DNA from: Octopus sinensis
Taxonomy: Eukaryota
Assembly: GCF_006345805.1 (NCBI RefSeq)
Contig: NC_043000.1
Location: 9,300,001-9,364,000 of the forward strand
Direction of reading: 5' to 3'
Length of the DNA stretch: 64,000 nt
The notes below the pieces were generated by a model, which saw nothing but the letters and a program-made list of their open reading frames with translations, made no database searches and was not told the DNA's origin. Below are positions 8,666 through 59,972 of the stretch, piece by piece (the first letter of the stretch is position 1; every line of letters begins with the position of its first letter). Made by a program: the position numbers and the translations under genes.

Positions 8666-8826
8666 ATATATATATATATATATATATAATTGATATAGGA
8701 TATTTTTTTTTTGTTTTGGCGTATCGGGCATTAGAATTTTTCTTCTGCCCTTATCTTGTATATATATATATATATATATATATAAGTATATGAAAGAATG
8801 GAGTTAAACGACTAGTTAACAAATAT

Positions 8827-9219: not shown

Positions 9220-11862
9220 ATGGAGTTGTTCGAGATTAACGCATCCCTTAAGGACATACCAATACCACCAAAAGAAACCTTCCTTAAGGAAATTGTCAAC
9301 AAAACAAATGCATTCATCAACCGAATTAGATGGCTCGCTTTTTTCCATGATAACGAGGACTTAAAACAGAACGGTACAGAAACATCTTCCGAATATAAGA
9401 AGCTATTCAAGTCGAGGGAGACACCGCCACCCAATCCCAGACGGAAGAAATTTGAGGACGACTAGTGGGACATTGTAAGGAGCGTTAAATTCCGTTAATC
9501 ACCCCTTAGGAATAAACACCTTAGATACCTCAACAAAATTACCAAAGATATAAACAGTTCAGACGCTATCCTGGTCCAATCAGATAAAACCAGGAATACA
9601 TACAAGCTAGCAAAAAACCAGTATTTAGAATTGCTCAAGAAGGAAATACAGAAGAATTACAGAACTACGAATAAGGATACACTTAGAAAAGCCAACTTGG
9701 AAATTAAGAAAATCATGTTTACTCATGGTTTGCAAATGAAAACACAACCACTCAACCCAAAGCAACCAAGATTCATTGTCAAGGACCATAAACCAAACTT
9801 CCAAACCAACCCAGCATTAAGGCTCATTTGCCCTTCTAGTTCCGACATCGGTTCCATCAGTAAGTACATTTTAGATAAATACATACCTAGATTAGTTAAT
9901 AAGCTTAAACTCAACATATGGTCTAACTCCACTCAAGTCGTAGAATGGTTCTCTTCCATTTCTAATAAAAATAGTACTAAATTCATTCAATTCGATATTT
10001 CCAATTTCTACCCTTCGATAAACCCCATCGTGCTCAATAAGGCCCTATGGCACGCACAGAACAAGGCAGGGCTGACAAGGAAGGAAATTAATATAATTCT
10101 AGCCGCTAGAAAATCCTTCATTCAATTCGATGATAAGTTATGGGTCCGTAAGGATACTCCCAACGCGTTCGATGTGCCAATGGGAAGCTCAGATAGCGCA
10201 CAGATAGCCGATTTGGTCGGAATCTATATTCTATATGAATTAGCCGACCAATTCCCGGACATCTGCGGCGGTCTGTATCGAGACGATTGTCTTTTTTACC
10301 TACAGAATGCCCCTAACAGTAGGATACAGAAGACTAAAAGTAGATTAGTTAGATTTTTCAGCAGGATGGGCATGAGCATAATTTTTGACAACGAACTAAC
10401 TAAGGCCAATTTCTTAGATGTTACCCTTAATTTGCATATTAATTCTTACTTCCCTTACCATAAGCCGTCTACGAACCTAAAATATGTCAGTATTTTTAGT
10501 AACCATGCAAAAACTATCACCGATAATTCGGTTAAAAATATATCCTTAAGACTATCAAAGTTATCAGCAAATGTCGACATTTTTAAACAGAAAGCGGAAT
10601 TTTATAATGCCGCCTTGTCAAAGGCCGGTTATAGGGATAAGGTATCATATATCGATCCGGCCCATCCTAAACTAATATCTGCCCATCAAGATAAGATAAC
10701 TTCTAATAATAATATAAATAACATAAATAGTGATTTCAGCTCTAGCAACGTCGACACAAATATATTTTACAATAATAATTTACGGACCAGGGGAGGCCAG
10801 CGTAAACCAAAACCCATTCTACAACACAGAAATATACCCTTTAATGTAAATGTCAACACTCTCAGCCATTCCAAGAACAAAAAAAACTATATTTGGTTTG
10901 TGATTCCTTTCGGGAGACAAATCAGGTCTAATCTCCTTTTACAATTCCGTGAAGCCGTTGCTAAGAATTTTCCTAGGAATTTTAGATACTACTCCACTAT
11001 AAATTCGCATAAAGTAAGAATAACATTCTCAAATACTAAAAATCTTTCGCAGATAATAGCTTCCCACAATAATAAGCTGCTAAATAGGGTCTCATCACCC
11101 ATGAGTAGCGACACCACCCTTACCCATTCCAACGTAACATACAATAATAATTATAACAGAAGTAGTATGGATATTAGCAACATTCATAGCAGCATTAGCG
11201 TTAGCAATAGTAATAATGATAATAACATTAGCCAGATTATTAACAGTGGTGGTGTTAGTGGTAATAGTACCAGCATTCTTAATAACAGTTATATTATTGA
11301 TGATAACAATCGCAGCATTCCTATAGCCAGGGAATTTGCCGACGATATTACAACTAATAGTAATGATAATAAGATGAATAGTATCGTGGCCAAAGCCGGC
11401 AACAATTTTTACACCTATCACAACAATAAAAACTCTGTCTTAGTATCGGAAACCAACCCCAACAGATTAAAGTTCTTATCCAAAAATTCCAAAATTAGAA
11501 ACACCACTTACCAATGCAAAATCTCTTCTGGAACTGATGTCTACTTCTACATTGGCGCAACCTCTTCTAAATTAGCCCAAAGGATATCCAACCATTATTC
11601 CACTTTCAGAGATAAGAGAAAGCAACACAGCACGGGGCTAAGCAAATTAGTCTGGCGTCTGAAGAACAATAACACTACGTTCAAGCTCGAATGGTCCATT
11701 TTGTCGGTGTCCTTCCCGTTTGATAAAGGCAGAAAATGTGGCATCTGTAATTCTGAACTTTTTCGTATTTTGTTCGCCAAAGTCCCTTTAATAAATACAA
11801 TCGTCGAAAGATCCTACAGGTGTTTACACTGGAAAAGACACACCTTTCACTCATATAAATAG
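9220..11862 (+). pseudogene. Penelope-like RT/GIY-YIG polyprotein (about 880 codons, two in-frame stops near 9463 and 9496)
   Basis: ORFs 9220-9465 and 9631-11862 are in the same frame. Motifs are FIQFDISNFYPSI, VPMGSS, LYRDD, NFLDV, then an Asn-rich linker, then TYQC..FYIG..RISNH..CGICNSE. Confidence 0.9.
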
Positions 11863-12409: not shown

Positions 12410-12504
12410 CCTTGATTTTCCTGATGAGAAATCTGCATAATGTAGTCCTTATTCCTTCGGAATTAGGAATATGCAGCCTTCGAAACATATGTCGAGAATA
12501 AAGG
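12410..12504 (+). ncRNA. type I hammerhead ribozyme in the Penelope 3' pseudo-LTR
   Basis: ccttgattttc-CTGATGA-gaa..ctgcat..atgcag..ttc-GAAA-catatg-TC-gagaataaagg. Stem I pairs 10 of 11, stem III is the palindrome ACATATGT, and cleavage falls after 12493. Confidence 0.88.
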
Positions 12505-12706
12505 ATATTTGTTAACTAGTCGTTCAACTCCATTCTTTCATATACTTATAATTTTAAAATAAACATACAAATTTCCGCACGAAGACACGTAGTCTATGCC
12601 CTTGGGACGTAGCTTGAACCGTGTTCTTTCTGATGTGAATTTGCTACCCAAGTATCGGTTATCTTTCGAATCATCCTTAATAAGGTAATTCATTCAACTA
12701 CTCAAT

Positions 12707-37070: not shown

Positions 37071-37303
37071 AAAGGTGGCGAGCTGGCAGAAACGTTAGCA
37101 CGCTGGGCGAAATGTTTAGCGGTATTTCGTCTGCCGCTACGTTCTGAGTTCAAATTTCGCCAAGATCGACTTTGCCTTTCATCCTTTCGGGGTCGATTAA
37201 ATAAGTACCAGTTACGCACTGCAGTCGATATAATCGACTTAATCCGTTTGTCTGTCCTTGTTCGTCCTCTCTGTGTTTAGCCCCTTGTGGGTAGTAAAGA
37301 AAT
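37071..37303 (+). mobile_element. SINE family B, full-length, with Tx1-like tail
   Basis: Head aaggtggcgagctggcagaaacgttagc..gagttcaaat, Nin-like core, tail ctgtgtttagccccttgtgggtagtaaagaaa. Confidence 0.85.
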
Positions 37304-37989
37304 AGGTTTATTATCAATGGTGTTCGAAGCTCAAGTTGTATAAGAAAAACAAAATAGCGAGTTGTTCTTCGTAGAATATTCCAGTGCAGTGCACACAATT
37401 TTTAGCCATTAAAAACCTTGCATTGCGAGATCATAAAAAGAAAATAGATCAATTGTCAAGAAAAGAAAAGTGATCTTAGAAAATTAAGGAGGTTGTTGAA
37501 TCTATGAGCAAATTTTCACTAACATAGAAAAGGATTCCCGAAGAATATCATATTTATCTCCTTTAGTGCAGCATAATTGTGTTTAACTGATAGCAGTTCC
37601 TATTTACCAGAAATTGCTTCATAGAATTTATAAGGCCAGATAATTTGACCTTATATTTGATTCTGCCCGAGTCCAAGCACTTAAAGATCAAATGACACGA
37701 TGCAGTCTATTACGTTATTATGGGTTTCCTTTTAAAAAGCAATTCTAATAATAGAGTATTTTCTATGCATCTTTTTTCCTTAAAATTCCTTAATTTCAAA
37801 TTTCTAATCCTGTTTGGAATTATAACGAAATAATTATCTCCTTTGTAATATCTGTGACCGTTTGAGGGATTACATGTGTTTGAACATCTTGAATTTTATC
37901 CAATAAGAAAGAAAGGATACTGGAACAAACTTATAAAAGAGGAAATACCATTAAAAAGACTATCAACTTCAATAATATGACATTGCACT

Positions 37990-42494: not shown

Positions 42495-42904
42495 GATGAT
42501 AATAGTTAAATAGATAAGCAAATAGAGTTAAACAATGTTTATTTAAAAAATAAATAAAATAAAACTTTTTCTTGGAGAAAAAAAACTCCATTAATTAAAT
42601 TAGAAACTTAAAACATTAGGATTATTTCCTACAACACATTTATTATGTTAAATATTTAATTTTTAAGGTAAAAAAAATAGATAGAAATATGTATTTATCT
42701 TTGAAGATATAATTTGGCTTTAAAAAAAACATAATAAACTATCGAATATCTATAACTCAGTTATACTTCAATATTTAATTACCAAATTATTTAACAAAAT
42801 AATCACTATTAATATTTTTAGATTTAAGTTCATATCTAATAATTATAAAATAATTAATACATAAAAATAAGTATCTAAATATACTATATATATGTAGTAA
42901 TGTC

Positions 42905-43258
42905 TATATGCCAAGAGAACGTGGCAGTCCTTTATAGGATGATGTTTTCCTGTTACTGCTGTTACAGCCCCAGGAAAACTTTTCCAGCGACTGTGTATCG
43001 CTCAGAAAATATATAGTATTTGCACGTGGAGGGAGCTTTCGTCGGTAGCTTTTGGTTAACTCACACTGAGGACAGATAACATTCAGAAACCTCGGTCTAT
43101 GAGTATCACGTAAGGCTAGAGATGGGAACGATGACCTCCTTTACAAATGCTATAAGGACACAGACTGTGTCGAAAGCCAGCTGGAAAAGATATTTTCCTG
43201 GGGCCATAACAAGGGTAACATCGTCCTATATAGGACTTCCTCGTTCTGCGGGCATATA
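42905..43258 (+). mobile_element. self-complementary (rod-like) non-coding element of about 354 nt with a central HHR
   Basis: 42905-42988 pairs with 43180-43258 and 43013-43058 pairs with 43114-43154; HHR at 43059-43104. Confidence 0.75.
43059..43104 (+). ncRNA. minimal type I hammerhead ribozyme
   Basis: actcaca-CTGAGGA-cagataacattca-GAAA-cctcgg-TC-tatgagt. Stem I pairs 6 of 7, stem II is weak, and GUC cleavage falls after 43097. Confidence 0.75.
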
Positions 43259-43344
43259 AACATTGATATCCGCTACTGTTACTGTAGATCTGTTGCTCAG
43301 AGATTTAAAACAAGTGGTTTGTATATATATTATATATATTTATT

Positions 43345-43380
<36 letters not shown>

Positions 43381-43423
43381 GATATATATATATACAAACA
43401 CACACACACACACATACATATAG

Positions 43424-43628
43424 CGCCCCGGGCGAAATGCTTAGCGGTATTTCGTCTGACATTACGTTCTGAGTTCAAATTCCGCCGAGGTAGACTTTGC
43501 CTTTCATCCTTTCGGGGTCGATAAATGAAGTACCAGTTTCGCACTGGGGTCGATGTAATCGACTTAATCCATTTGTCTGTCCTTGTTTGTCCCCTATATA
43601 TTTAGCCTCTTGTGGGTAGTAAAGAAAT
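43424..43628 (+). mobile_element. SINE family B with Tx1-like tail
   Basis: Matches 37071-37303. Confidence 0.85.
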
Positions 43629-43699
43629 ATATATATATATATATATAAAGACAGCACTAGAAAGATCTAGGGAAAAAAATGGTATTTACCTTACTCAGA

Positions 43700-49464: not shown

Positions 49465-50280
49465 TGGTTTTCAAATTTTTGGCACAAGGCCAGCAACTTT
49501 GACGGGAGGGGTTAAACCGATTGCAATAAGTGTTCAACTGGTACTTATTTTATCGACCCCGTAAGAATGAAAGACAAAGTCGACCTCGGTGGAATTTGAA
49601 CTCAGAACGCCAAAGACAGACAAAATGCCGCTTAGCATTTTGCCCGGATGGGTGCTAACGATTCTTATTTCTTTATTGCCCACAAGGGGCTAAACATAGA
49701 GAGGACAAACAAGGACAGACAAAGGGATTAAGTCGATTACATCGTCCCAAGTGCGTAACTGGTACTTAATTTATCGACCCCGAAAGGATGAAAGGTAAAG
49801 TCGACCTCGGCGGAATTTGAACGCAGTACGTAGCGACGAGCGAAATACCTATTTCTTTACTACGCACAAGAGGACAAACAAGGACAGACAAACGGATGAA
49901 GTCGATTACATCGACCCCATTGCATAACTGGTACTTAATTTATCGATCTCGAAAGGATGAAAGGCAAAGTCGACCTCGGCGGAATTTGAACCCAGAACGT
50001 AACGGCAGACGAAATACGGTTACGCCCGGCGTGCTAACGTTTCTGCCAGCTCACCGCCTTGGTATCAGTTGTAATATTACTAGCAGAAATAAGGCGGTGG
50101 GCAGAGAGAATCGTTAGCGGCGTTACGCCCGTCTTTACGTTCTGAGTTCAAGTTCCGCCGAGGTCGACTTTCCTTTCATCCTTTCAGAATCGATAGATAC
50201 CAGCTGAACACTGGAGTTGATGTAATCGACTTACCCCCACACCTCGAAGTTTCTGACTACGTGCCAAAACCTGAAACCAG
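49465..50280. mobile_element. cluster of SINE family B copies
   Basis: Three minus copies 49465-50060, two of them with the tttcttta..cacaag tail, and one plus copy 50090-50280. Confidence 0.8.
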
Positions 50281-55676: not shown

Positions 55677-56309
55677 TATTTGAAAAACAAAGCCGAATCC
55701 GGTAGTATAATATCGGCAAACTTCCATCGATATTAGCGAACTTATTAATAAGGAAATACTTTCGTTATCAAACATTTTCGTTCTTTGAATATTTTCCTAA
55801 TTAAATAAATTTACCTTTAAATATAAACATATGTACTGAAGCGTTGGTTGTTTATATTCATATTGTAGCGATGAATATATTCAAACATACATATTTTTAA
55901 AAAATCTATACGCAGAACAGAAAATCAATAGATATTAAAATAAACTTTTTTTTATAATAAAAATAAATGAATTTTCTTTTCTTAATTTTAAAACAGCAAA
56001 ACAGTGATATACATAAAGAATGAGAAACATGTTTGTTACATTTAGGAATAAGAATGTTTTGAAATTCTCAACTAATTCTTATGCATCATCGCATCATTTC
56101 CTCTCAGATTCTTTTATGTAACTATTAATTAGTTCTTCTGAGATACCCTACATTGGCTTTGAGTTTATCTTGTTGGTATGTAATCGAAAGGACTCAATAT
56201 ATTTACTGAGTATGCATGAAGATCAGTCGTGATTGGCGATCTTGCTATTGCAGTTCATAAAACGTTGGTGAAATGCGTGCGACACCTACATGTGTGTGTC
56301 TGTGTTTGC

Positions 56310-56345
<36 letters not shown>

Positions 56346-56370
56346 GTGCGTGTGTGTGTGTGTATGTGTG

Positions 56371-56631
56371 TGGAGGCGCAATGGCCCAGTGGTTAGGGCA
56401 GCGGATTCGCGGTCGTAGGATCGCAGTTTCGATTCCCAGACCGGGCGTTGTGTGTGTTTATTGAGCGAAAACACCTAAAGCTCCACGAGGCTCCGGCAGG
56501 GATGGGTGGCGATCCCTGCTGACTCTTTCGCCAGCGGGGTTGCCTCATTTGAAGGCTAAAACAATGCGAAGTGCATTGTGACCAGCGATGTGTTGCAACA
56601 TCTGATAGCCTGGTCGGTCACGGTGACGGTG
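56371..56631 (+). mobile_element. SINE with family C head and a different tail (duplicate at 58096-58357)
   Basis: tggcccagtggttag A box, tttcgattcc B box, tail gtgaccagcgatgtg..ctggtcggtcac(ggtgac)2. Confidence 0.85.
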
Positions 56632-56638
56632 ATATATA

Positions 56639-56690
<52 letters not shown>

Positions 56691-56910
56691 AGTCAATTTA
56701 GGGTAGCAAAAAAATTCAATAGAAATTTATCGCTACCAGCGGCCTGGTGGAAAAGAGAAAATAGTCATCGACTAAATATATAAATATAACAATTTAGGAG
56801 TGACCCTAACAGGTCATTCGTCCACCAGAAAGAGCAGCCATAACTCACACCGCCAAGTAGTAGTAATTCAGAAATTAGGTGAAAATTTAAAAACATTTAC
56901 CCTAATTCAT

Positions 56911-57010
56911 CTTTTAGACGTTGCAACGTTTCTGTGTCATTAATGATTAAATTAGCTTAATTAAATTAAATTAAGCTAATCTACCATAGGTTACACTTCA
57001 TCAGTAAAAA
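56911..57010 (-). ncRNA. type I hammerhead ribozyme (duplicate at 58633-58732)
   Basis: Reverse complement of 57179-57278. Confidence 0.82.
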
Positions 57011-57178
57011 ACCTGGGAGAGACAAATATACACGAGTCGCAATAATTCTGAGATTGAATCGGCAGTTTATATTTACTGCTGATAAGTTTGGCGCGAATAC
57101 GTCAGTCTTGAAAATTTTAAGACAGATATTCCGTAGGCATCGATACAGACGCCTCGTGTATATTTGTCTCTCCCAGGT

Positions 57179-57278
57179 TTTTTACTGATGAAGTGTAACC
57201 TATGGTAGATTAGCTTAATTTAATTTAATTAAGCTAATTTAATCATTAATGACACAGAAACGTTGCAACGTCTAAAAG
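57179..57278 (+). ncRNA. type I hammerhead ribozyme with long stem II (duplicate at 58901-59000)
   Basis: ttttta-CTGATGA-agtgt..tagattagcttaatt/aattaagctaattta..acaca-GAAA-cgttgcaacg-TC-taaaag. Stem III is the palindrome ACGTTGCAACGT; cleavage falls after 57272. Confidence 0.82.
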
Positions 57279-57399
57279 ATGAATTAGGTAAATGTTTTTA
57301 AATTTTCACCTAATTTCTGAATTACTACTACTTGGCGGTGTGAGTTATGGCTGCTCTTTCTGGTGGACGAATGACCTGTTAGGGTCACTCCTAAATTGT

Positions 57400-57525
<126 letters not shown>

Positions 57526-57751
57526 AGTACTTCATATATCCGAAAAGAAGCACACTCTAAAAACATAATATTTAAAAGGTTATTAATAGTTATCGACGAG
57601 CTAACATGGCAGTCCAGAAAAATAGGACGAATGCTGCCGTTGATTAGCTCCAAGAGGCCATCGCCTCTAGCTAGCTATGTGACACACGAACTTGTGTCCA
57701 TTATAACCTTCGAACAGGGGAGGTCAGCCGCTTCCCCTTGCCGGTCTGGCA

Positions 57752-57794
57752 TCTACAGACTAGTTTCAGGGTATTTGCCCCTTATCAATGTAGA
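57752..57794 (-). ncRNA. type I hammerhead ribozyme, U3-A8 core variant (duplicate at 59476-59518)
   Basis: Minus strand tctaca-TTGATAA-gggg-caaata-ccct-GAAA-ctag-TC-tgtaga. Stem I is a perfect 6 bp, stem II is 4 bp, stem III is the palindrome ACTAGT; the duplicate has GUA. Confidence 0.82.
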
Positions 57795-58021
57795 GCAGCT
57801 GAACCAGGCAGAGAGTTACTATTTCGCTCTTATAAGGGATTAGCTATATAGGTGACTCGTCAAACTCATCTGGCGGAGGCACATAACAGAAAACATTCTA
57901 AATATATATACATGTGTGTGTGTGTGTTTGTTTGTGCGTGTGTGTGTGTGTGCGTGTGTGTGTGTGTATGTGTGCGTGCCTGCGTTTGTGTTTGTTTGTG
58001 TGTGTGTGAGTGTGTGTGTGC

Positions 58022-58064
<43 letters not shown>

Positions 58065-58353
58065 ATATGTGCGTGTGTGTGTGTGTGTATGTGTGTGGAG
58101 GCGCAATGGCCCAGTGGTTAGGGCAGCGGATTCGCGGTCGTAGGATCGCAGTTTCGATTCCCAGACCGGGCGTTGTGTGTGTTTATTGAGCGAAAACACC
58201 TAAAGCTCCACGAGGCTCCGGCAGGGATGGGTGGCGATCCCTGCTGACTCTTTCGCCAGCGGGGTTGCCTCATTTGAAGGCTAAAACAATGCGAAGTGCA
58301 TTGTGACCAGCGATGTGTTGCAACATCTGATAGCCTGGTCGGTCACGGTGACG

Positions 58354-58401
<48 letters not shown>

Positions 58402-59120
58402 ATATATATATATTAGTCAATTTAGGGTAGCAAAAAAATTCAATAGAATTTATCGCTACCAGCGGCCTGGTGGAAAAGAGAAAATAGTCATCGACTAAAT
58501 ATATAAATATAACAATTTAGGAGTGACCCTAACAGGTCATTCGTCCACCAGAAAGAGCAGCATAACTCACACCGCCAAGTAGTAGTAATTCAGAAATTAG
58601 GTGAAAATTTAAAAACATTTACCCTAATTCATCTTTTAGACGTTGCAACGTTTCTGTGTCATTAATGATTAAATTAGCTTAATTAAATTAAATTAAGCTA
58701 ATCTACCATAGGTTACACTTCATCAGTAAAAAACCTGGGAGAGACAAATATACACGAGTCGCAATAATTCTGAGATTGAATCGGCAGTTTATATTTACTG
58801 CTGATAAGTTTGGCGCGAATACGTCAGTCTTGAAAATTTTAAGACAGATATTCCGTAGGCATCGATACAGACGCCTCGTGTATATTTGTCTCTCCCAGGT
58901 TTTTTACTGATGAAGTGTAACCTATGGTAGATTAGCTTAATTTAATTTAATTAAGCTAATTTAATCATTAATGACACAGAAACGTTGCAACGTCTAAAAG
59001 ATGAATTAGGGTAAATGTTTTTAAATTTTCACCTAATTTCTGAATTACTACTACTTGGCGGTGTGAGTTATGGCTGCTCTTTCTGGTGGACGAATGACCT
59101 GTTAGGTCACTCCTAAATTG

Positions 59121-59185
<65 letters not shown>

Positions 59186-59972
59186 ATATGTATATATATA
59201 TGTGTATGTGTGTGTGTGTGTGTGGTGTGTGTGTGTGTGTGTGTGTGTCAGTACTTCATATATCCGAAAAGAAGCACACTCTAAAAACATAATATTTAAA
59301 AGGTTATTAATAGTTATCGACGAGCTAACATGGCAGTCCAGAAAAATAGGACGAATGCTGCCGTTGATTAGCTCCAAGAGGCCATCGCCTCTAGCTAGCT
59401 ATGTGACACACGAACTTGTGTCCATTATAACCTTCGAACAGGGGAGGTCAGCCGCTTCCCCTTGCCGGTCTGGCATCTACATACTAGTTTCAGGGTATTT
59501 GCCCCTTATCAATGTAGAGCAGCTGAACCAGGCAGAGAGTTACTATTTCGCTCTTATAAGGGATTAGCTATATAGGTGACTCGTCAAACTCATCTGGCGG
59601 AGGCACATAACAGAAAACATTCTAAATATATATACATGTGTGTGTGTGTGTTTGTTTGTGCGTGTGTGTGTGTGCGTGTGTGTGTGTGTATGTGTGCGTG
59701 CCTGCGTTTGTGTTTGTTTGTGTGTGTGTGAGTGTGTGTGTGCGTGTGTGTGTGTGTATGTGTGCGTGCCTGCGTTTGTGTTTGTTTGTGTGTGTGTGAG
59801 TTCGCGCATTAGAAAGAAATAATGGACAAGCAAAACGTATTATCCGTTTAGAGCAAGTAATGTATAATTCAAACATAATTGCAGAGTTGTTAGAGTAAAT
59901 AAGGGATTAAGAAGTTATGCATGAAGTCTTTTACAGCTGTTTCTAGAATAGTTGTGCATATTCTTTTATTCT

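Follow-up and report, generated by a model that had tools for sequence, protein, structure and literature searches.

The strongly self-paired stretch at positions 42905-43258 of the window (the whole 64,000-nucleotide stretch of the Octopus sinensis genome analysed here) is a real feature that was misread in an earlier note as a viroid-like rod of 354 nt, and the rod proves ordinary once it is taken apart. It is very probably a decayed copy of a dispersed, non-coding, 352-nt permuted repeat with a hammerhead motif, likely a non-LTR retrozyme, whose outer arm is an inverted piece likely produced by a Penelope-type reverse transcriptase working at both ends of a cut target. The rod exists because an inverted piece of the same element adjoins the main piece, and it was the alternative offered by the earlier note, a decayed Penelope-type 5' inversion, that is supported: a second, inverted piece of the same repeat makes up the outer arm. 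The whole insertion is 426 bp long (42895-43320), lies between AT-rich microsatellite-like flanks and consists of two head-to-head pieces of one repeat. The main piece (42985-43320, + strand, 336 nt) covers monomer positions 240-352 and then 1-225, counted from the predicted hammerhead cut; it is circularly permuted relative to the 352-nt monomer, amounts to 0.95 unit and is 88% identical to the consensus. The inverted second piece (42895-42988, - strand) corresponds to monomer 85-173 at 79% identity to the family consensus, constitutes the 5' side of the outer arm and has its 3' end at the family's short end site. The two pieces share a 4-nt overlap, or microhomology, at their junction (42985-42988). 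The part of the main piece duplicated by the inverted one (43180-43268, + strand, again monomer 85-173) supplies the 3' strand of the outer arm, whereas the predicted monomer structure has local hairpins in this stretch. It is followed, at one end only, by a 52-nt tail between the short and long end sites (43269-43320, + strand), which lies outside the coordinates first given for the rod. The 3' ends of this copy are at monomer 173 (inverted piece) and 225 (main piece), one short and one long, and its flanks are simple repeats in which a target-site duplication, longer than 4 bp where retrozymes have one, is indistinguishable by eye. Contigs from all three independent DNA runs span the junction, which is therefore no assembly error. 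Near 42950 the inverted arm has 8-9 extra nt that resemble, in reverse complement, bases lying 20 nt further downstream; neither one of the three runs (X3) nor the family consensus contains them, so that they were likely inserted recently and are polymorphic.

Folding both strands of 42905-43258 against shuffles gave values far better than the shuffles for each: -156.5 kcal/mol for the + strand (z -11.05, equalled by none of 100 shuffles) and -137.0 kcal/mol for the - strand (z -8.74), a difference of 19.5 kcal/mol in favour of the + strand. Four of the nested + strand pairings reported earlier are present at their sites, namely tatatgcc/ggcatata at the ends (42905-42912/43251-43258), ccccaggaaaa/ttttcctgggg (42968-42978/43193-43203), tatagtatttg/caaatgctata (43012-43022/43144-43154) and ggagg/cctcc (43028-43032/43135-43139); the fifth, ttttggtt/ggctagag, is absent from the fold of lowest energy, where the partner of 43046-43052 is 43112-43118. 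Positions 42905 and 43258 are not termini, given that the inverted repeat reaches 42895/43268 and the element 43320, nor is the rod unbranched, side hairpins occurring at 42991-43005 and 43157-43171 even in the window copy. G.U pairs had been read as a hint of RNA-level structure in the outer arm, but alignment of the two arms yields 72 Watson-Crick, 3 G.U, 4 A.C, 7 other and 11 gap columns, with no bias towards G.U over A.C, and of nine G.U pairs in the + strand fold the outer arm accounts for only two, the family's own sequence for seven. The arms match the family consensus at 77/90 and 76/90 positions; each has diverged from the same consensus, and they are therefore DNA copies that began identical and have since changed independently. 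What forms the outer arm is a DNA duplicate and not an RNA structure.

The same emerges from other copies. Our subfamily A sample comprises 60 distinct loci from 90 fetched, with duplicates dropped and pieces under 50 nt ignored: 35 have pieces in one orientation only, 25 are head-to-head and none is tail-to-tail. At the 25 head-to-head junctions the shorter piece measures 63-412 nt and the junctions are scattered over the unit, L002 being one other locus with a junction similar to that of the window copy. An outer arm that varies in this manner among copies (absent from 35/60 loci), without strand asymmetry, does away with the proposed viroid-like rod of 354 nt. The likeness to retrozymes and the RNA-level structure suggested at the same time survive for the inner part, a branched and covarying 352-nt monomer, and fall away for the outer arm. 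This true monomer is a different stretch from the rod, and the two are similar in length by chance.

The hammerhead that had been placed at the tip of the rod is a type I motif at 43060-43103 on the + strand, with stem I at 43060-65/43098-103, core residues at 43066-72, stem II at 43074-77/43081-84, GAAA at 43086-89, a short stem III with a palindromic loop and a predicted cut after 43097. A search of the whole window with Rfam returned no ribozyme at the gathering score, and at E values up to 10 over 42700-43500 only simple-repeat noise and no ribozyme; as Rfam is silent, the call is made from the motif, its covariation and published descriptions. No hammerhead motif occurs on the - strand of 42905-43258, other ribozyme types having been sought only through Rfam. 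The family hammerhead combines a conserved core with a helix I of 6 bp, a helix II of 4 bp and a helix III of 2 bp closed by a palindromic loop, dimensions typical of the canonical metazoan hammerheads that cleave as dimers, as described in PMC4209133. The window copy departs from the family at 43074 (stem II base pair), 43093 (loop III palindrome) and 43099 (stem I), and with a single hammerhead and three stem changes it probably cannot release a monomer. Between subfamilies the base pairs of stems I and II swap, and loop III stays palindromic despite its sequence change. A C.A opposition occupies the base of stem II in subfamilies A, B and C, and the core of subfamily D is U3/A8 in 10 of 12 matches, replacing C3-G8, a compensatory core variant known from natural hammerheads (PMC3088659, PMC4209133). 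The C.A opposition speaks against an active ribozyme, and so does the lowest-energy structure of the A monomer, in which the catalytic core is not formed. A second hammerhead or hairpin ribozyme near 43157-43185, considered by eye at a four-way junction, was rejected, its apparent GAAA belonging to this copy only.

The family is a dispersed repeat of the 2.7-Gb genome, for which we obtained 1885 and 1618 first-look candidates, the best 40 of each being scored. The subfamily A hammerhead, with 24 fixed letters, has 30 exact matches and none in the control, and a second pattern has 162 exact matches against none in controls, which resolved into the sister subfamilies B (357 nt, 82% identical to A) and C (353 nt, 71%). 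Subfamily D (359 nt, 58% identical to A, 2583 candidates) was first found by the RNA model within the window, where two copies with the U3/A8 core and a 2-bp stem III lie on the - strand at about 57578-57811 and 59302-59535. Distant subfamilies came to light through patterns, DNA searches and the RNA model as applied to the window. The copies repeat the unit directly, in partial tandems whose period of 352 nt is within the retrozyme range of 150-450 nt, and their starts are scattered over the unit. The units are directly adjacent with no ORF between them; the longest open frame in a unit is 61 aa, so that the repeat is non-coding, and GC content is 0.42 in A and 0.42-0.46 over the subfamilies, below 50%. 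The copies are old, with a median identity of 90% and a best of 94% to the consensus among the 60 A loci. Main pieces exceed one unit at 34 of these 60, which indicates either a circle or an uncut tandem transcript, alternatives that the data do not separate; none reaches two units, the longest being 607 nt (1.7 units), and the longest among 23 subfamily D loci is 689 nt, only top matches having been scored in either case. That all 60 A loci cross the cut site is partly a matter of selection, the sampled loci being the top matches of hammerhead-containing queries. We did not find the family in the literature on octopus or cephalopod hammerhead ribozymes, retrozymes and Penelope elements, where it may sit in supplements or repeat databases, and the family motif has 0 matches in viral contigs.

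The predicted circular fold of the A monomer is branched and highly self-paired, with z -7.4 on the + strand and -5.7 on the - strand (60 shuffles), and its long stem leads to hammerhead stem I; in the window copy this native stem pairs 43012-43052 with 43112-43154 on the + strand (43012-43154 in all) and is conserved and covarying. A structure predicted from A alone (100 pairs, p>0.8) was then applied to B and C, where pairing survives 16 two-sided changes and is lost in 4, and one-sided changes lead to G.U or Watson-Crick pairs in 15 cases, to A.C in 4 and to other mismatches in 12. Over 31 natural copies of the inner stem and hammerhead 89.5% of cells are paired, against 29-50% with slid partners, and 92 cells show a two-sided change, above 500/500 shuffles. 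In the hairpin block (33 copies) 88.4% of cells are paired and the 50 two-sided cells are reached by 0/500 shuffles; pairs with a two-sided change number only 6 there, which 449/500 shuffles reach. The covariation is that of four subfamilies 58-82% identical and hence of few independent events, and as the copies fall into three groups the copy-level counts inherit this small number. Covariation, one of the criteria named in the earlier note, thus speaks for the inner stem, the hammerhead and the monomer fold as genuine family features; the outer arm is variable among copies.

The pieces end mostly at two sites. Among 89 piece 3' ends in subfamily A, 44 fall at monomer 160-180 and 27 at 210-236, so that 71/89 are at two fixed sites 40-60 nt apart, and most 3' ends directly abut (TA)n, (CA)n or (CT)n. 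They are followed by no poly(A) or other common added tail, only by the flanking simple repeat, and microhomology is found at piece junctions in the 60 A loci. Ragged 5' ends together with fixed 3' ends point to reverse transcription. The 25 head-to-head A loci include 18 that join a short to a long end, 1 with two short ends, none with two long ends and 6 with an end outside both classes; the short-long combination is hence found in 18/19 classifiable loci (p 4e-5, with end windows set after seeing family A). In subfamilies B-D the end sites are at the same monomer positions as in A, and 21 of 52 distinct loci are head-to-head, of which, in a count made by eye that includes two pieces under 50 nt, 11 are short+long, 1 short+short, 1 long+long and 8 have an unclassified end. 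Penelope-like insertions have a published signature (PMC8557442, PMC3846280), and the octopus family shares it: a 5'-truncated copy in inverted orientation, a tail on one side only and an AT-rich or microsatellite target. A purified Penelope-like protein has further been reported to cut and extend both strands of AT-rich DNA and to initiate at two positions within the RNA, which mark the limits of the tail (PMC11167929).

Young elements encoding a reverse transcriptase (RT) with a GIY-YIG domain are present in this genome. Two such families (L146:174-3877 and L151) are 92-100% identical among copies and have an extra upstream frame (479 aa in L146); a canonical hammerhead core was not found in the 5 loci of these families that were scanned. 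The window itself holds a Penelope-like element (PLE) at 8781 to about 12707, with a 787-aa frame (9499-11862, + strand) containing asparagine-rich stretches, in which Pfam gave no RT or GIY-YIG match and the domains were judged by eye. It has 379-nt inverted repeats (8781-9159/12172-12550), (TA)n at both ends, about 155 extra nt at one end and, by eye, a hammerhead-like motif with a long stem II near 12410-12505, and belongs to a family of 3086 candidates 95-98% identical. Among 25 loci of that family picked by their long end, 4 of the 5 head-to-head loci whose second piece extends to an end site are long+short. None of the three PLE families sampled has a repeat-unit sequence in common with ours: tblastn of three PLE proteins against 145 repeat loci (not de-duplicated) matched 4, none of them continuous with the unit, and the four-subfamily profile matched 6 of 78 PLE loci taken from thousands of candidates, two of these being the same place. 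In L151 a C-type unit lies 885 nt upstream of the RT+GIY-YIG ORF and was considered as an inverted pseudo-LTR (pLTR), but none of 19 other copies of that PLE carries it and the proximity is due to chance. At another locus (L217:942-2064, G000:C9:20449570-20450692) a piece of subfamily C (monomer 64-322, 96%) stands head-to-head with a 5'-truncated member of the PLE family found in the window, and may as a single case be a chimeric PLE/retrozyme insertion; the 3' end of its C piece is at neither site and no remainder was found in the 20 kb to the left.

Animal non-LTR retrozymes have been described at about 350-390 nt in mussel, 331/353 nt in axolotl and 220-245 nt in coral; they are expressed as circles in all three, with PLEs proposed as their mobiliser (PMC7229834). 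The octopus family agrees with that description in its non-coding unit of about 350 nt, GC under 45-50%, type I hammerhead with palindromic helix III, self-paired branched monomer (predicted here) and PLEs in the same genome. The mismatch at the base of helix II is C.A in the octopus family and U.U in axolotl HHR_Amex2 (PMC7229834). Unlike the retrozymes as described, which are often multimeric, octopus copies are old and dispersed, their partial tandems in the A sample not exceeding 1.7 units, and the frequent head-to-head inversions and two fixed end sites are not among the features that we found given in PMC7229834. With EN+ PLEs, as depicted in PMC8557442, PMC3846280 and PMC11167929, the family has in common 5' truncation, partial tandems, an inverted truncated copy and a one-end tail, besides AT-rich or microsatellite targets and a type I hammerhead (PMC4209133). 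It differs from autonomous PLEs in lacking an RT or GIY-YIG ORF, from the PLEs sampled in the same genome in showing no sequence similarity to them, from the tail of 30-40 nt given for PLEs in having one of 40-60 nt, and from the minimal hammerheads of PLEs in having a canonical one (6/4/2 bp) (PMC4209133). Judged by its sequence, the family is likely a further animal non-LTR retrozyme, mobilised by Penelope-like elements; it inserts like a PLE, yet is neither an autonomous PLE nor a viroid. Hammerhead viroids (Avsunviroidae and relatives) carry ribozymes on both polarities and are not known to have a DNA stage. The octopus family resembles them in size class, hammerhead and high self-pairing, but is a genomic DNA repeat with hundreds to thousands of decayed copies and a ribozyme on one strand, and the rod is specific to the window copy and not conserved as a unit among copies.

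Based on these observations we propose that copies with two hammerheads would be transcribed and would cut themselves, probably as dimeric ribozymes because loop III is palindromic, giving a structured monomer that was possibly circularised. A Penelope-like RT/GIY-YIG protein would then nick both strands at an AT-rich microsatellite, and prime two cDNAs, the first from the long site at monomer ~210-236 and the second from the short site at ~160-180; the two 5'-truncated cDNAs would be joined head-to-head by microhomology, and both arms would afterwards decay as neutral DNA. More tentatively, and with a chance we set somewhat below even, the four subfamilies may record retrozyme mobilisation in which one Penelope-type complex primes both target ends on a circular RNA of about 355 nt at two fixed sites 40-60 nt apart, a separate site for each end, whose positions have been kept down to 58% identity.

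A different enzyme could be envisaged, in that LINE-like RT frames are common in the window and a LINE RT that mobilised the RNA, with an L1-type twin-priming inversion, would also be compatible with the junction microhomology. In twin priming the second primer is placed at variable internal sites and the pieces do not overlap. In the present family a fixed site marks the second end, the two pieces cover overlapping parts of the monomer and no poly(A) or common added tail follows the 3' ends, so that we consider mobilisation by a LINE RT very unlikely. The inverted repeats near both ends and the TA-rich target recall a MITE-like DNA transposon with terminal inverted repeats of about 90 bp and a captured hammerhead, to which we give next to no credence: the repeats are not terminal (52 nt lie beyond one arm), are not constant and are missing from 35/60 loci, and the ragged 5' and fixed 3' ends indicate reverse transcription. 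Viroids have lengths near 354 nt, and this length, the strong + fold with its 19.5 kcal/mol advantage and the similar junction of L002 are what speaks for the rod as an independent RNA, a viroid-like circle that has integrated and bears a hammerhead at its tip. That reading is scarcely tenable, since the outer arm duplicates downstream sequence in reverse complement and is absent from 35/60 loci and otherwise variable, its arms drifted separately with no G.U bias, the rod ends are not the element ends, the - strand has no hammerhead motif and viral contigs gave no match to the family motif.

The remaining rival involves no circle: the unit could be a solo or truncated pLTR of an autonomous PLE whose ORF-bearing copies were not sampled, its tandems and inversions being PLE-like. 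PLEs do show inversion, a tail and a microsatellite bias (PMC8557442), a relationship of retrozymes to pLTRs is described in Xenopus (bioRxiv 10.64898/2026.07.22.740005), insertion in vitro proceeded in one PLE without need for ribozyme cleavage (PMC11167929), and our longest piece has only 1.7 units. We nevertheless regard it as unlikely, because the units are directly adjacent without an ORF between them, the unit has no long frame, the 4/145 repeat loci that match PLE proteins are none of them continuous, and no PLE family among those sampled shares the unit.

A retrozyme moved by Penelope-type machinery, the reading we prefer, bears on a broader question. The enzyme that moves animal retrozymes is still hypothetical in the accounts of PMC7229834 and of bioRxiv 10.64898/2026.07.22.740005, a 2026 preprint that links retrozymes to pLTRs in vertebrates. 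The rule of one short and one long end, common to the family and the coding PLE of the window, ties retrozymes to the two-site priming of PLEs, and as a family-wide rule it means defined start sites and a handle on retrozyme mobilisation. If true, two-site priming on a circle would be direct genomic evidence for the proposed partnership of PLEs and retrozymes and for a circular template. For scans of genomic DNA the present case is also a caution, in that a PLE-type inversion beside a hammerhead mimics a viroid rod.

Two further features of the window deserve mention. At 56291-59759 there is a 1.75-kb tandem duplication of 98% identity, each unit with a palindromic element of about 640 nt, which is either a recent duplication or an assembly artefact. 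To the right of the element, at 43425-43630, lies a high-copy SINE-like repeat of about 190 nt, which also occurs at 37121-37304 and 49666-49849 and in many of the fetched loci.
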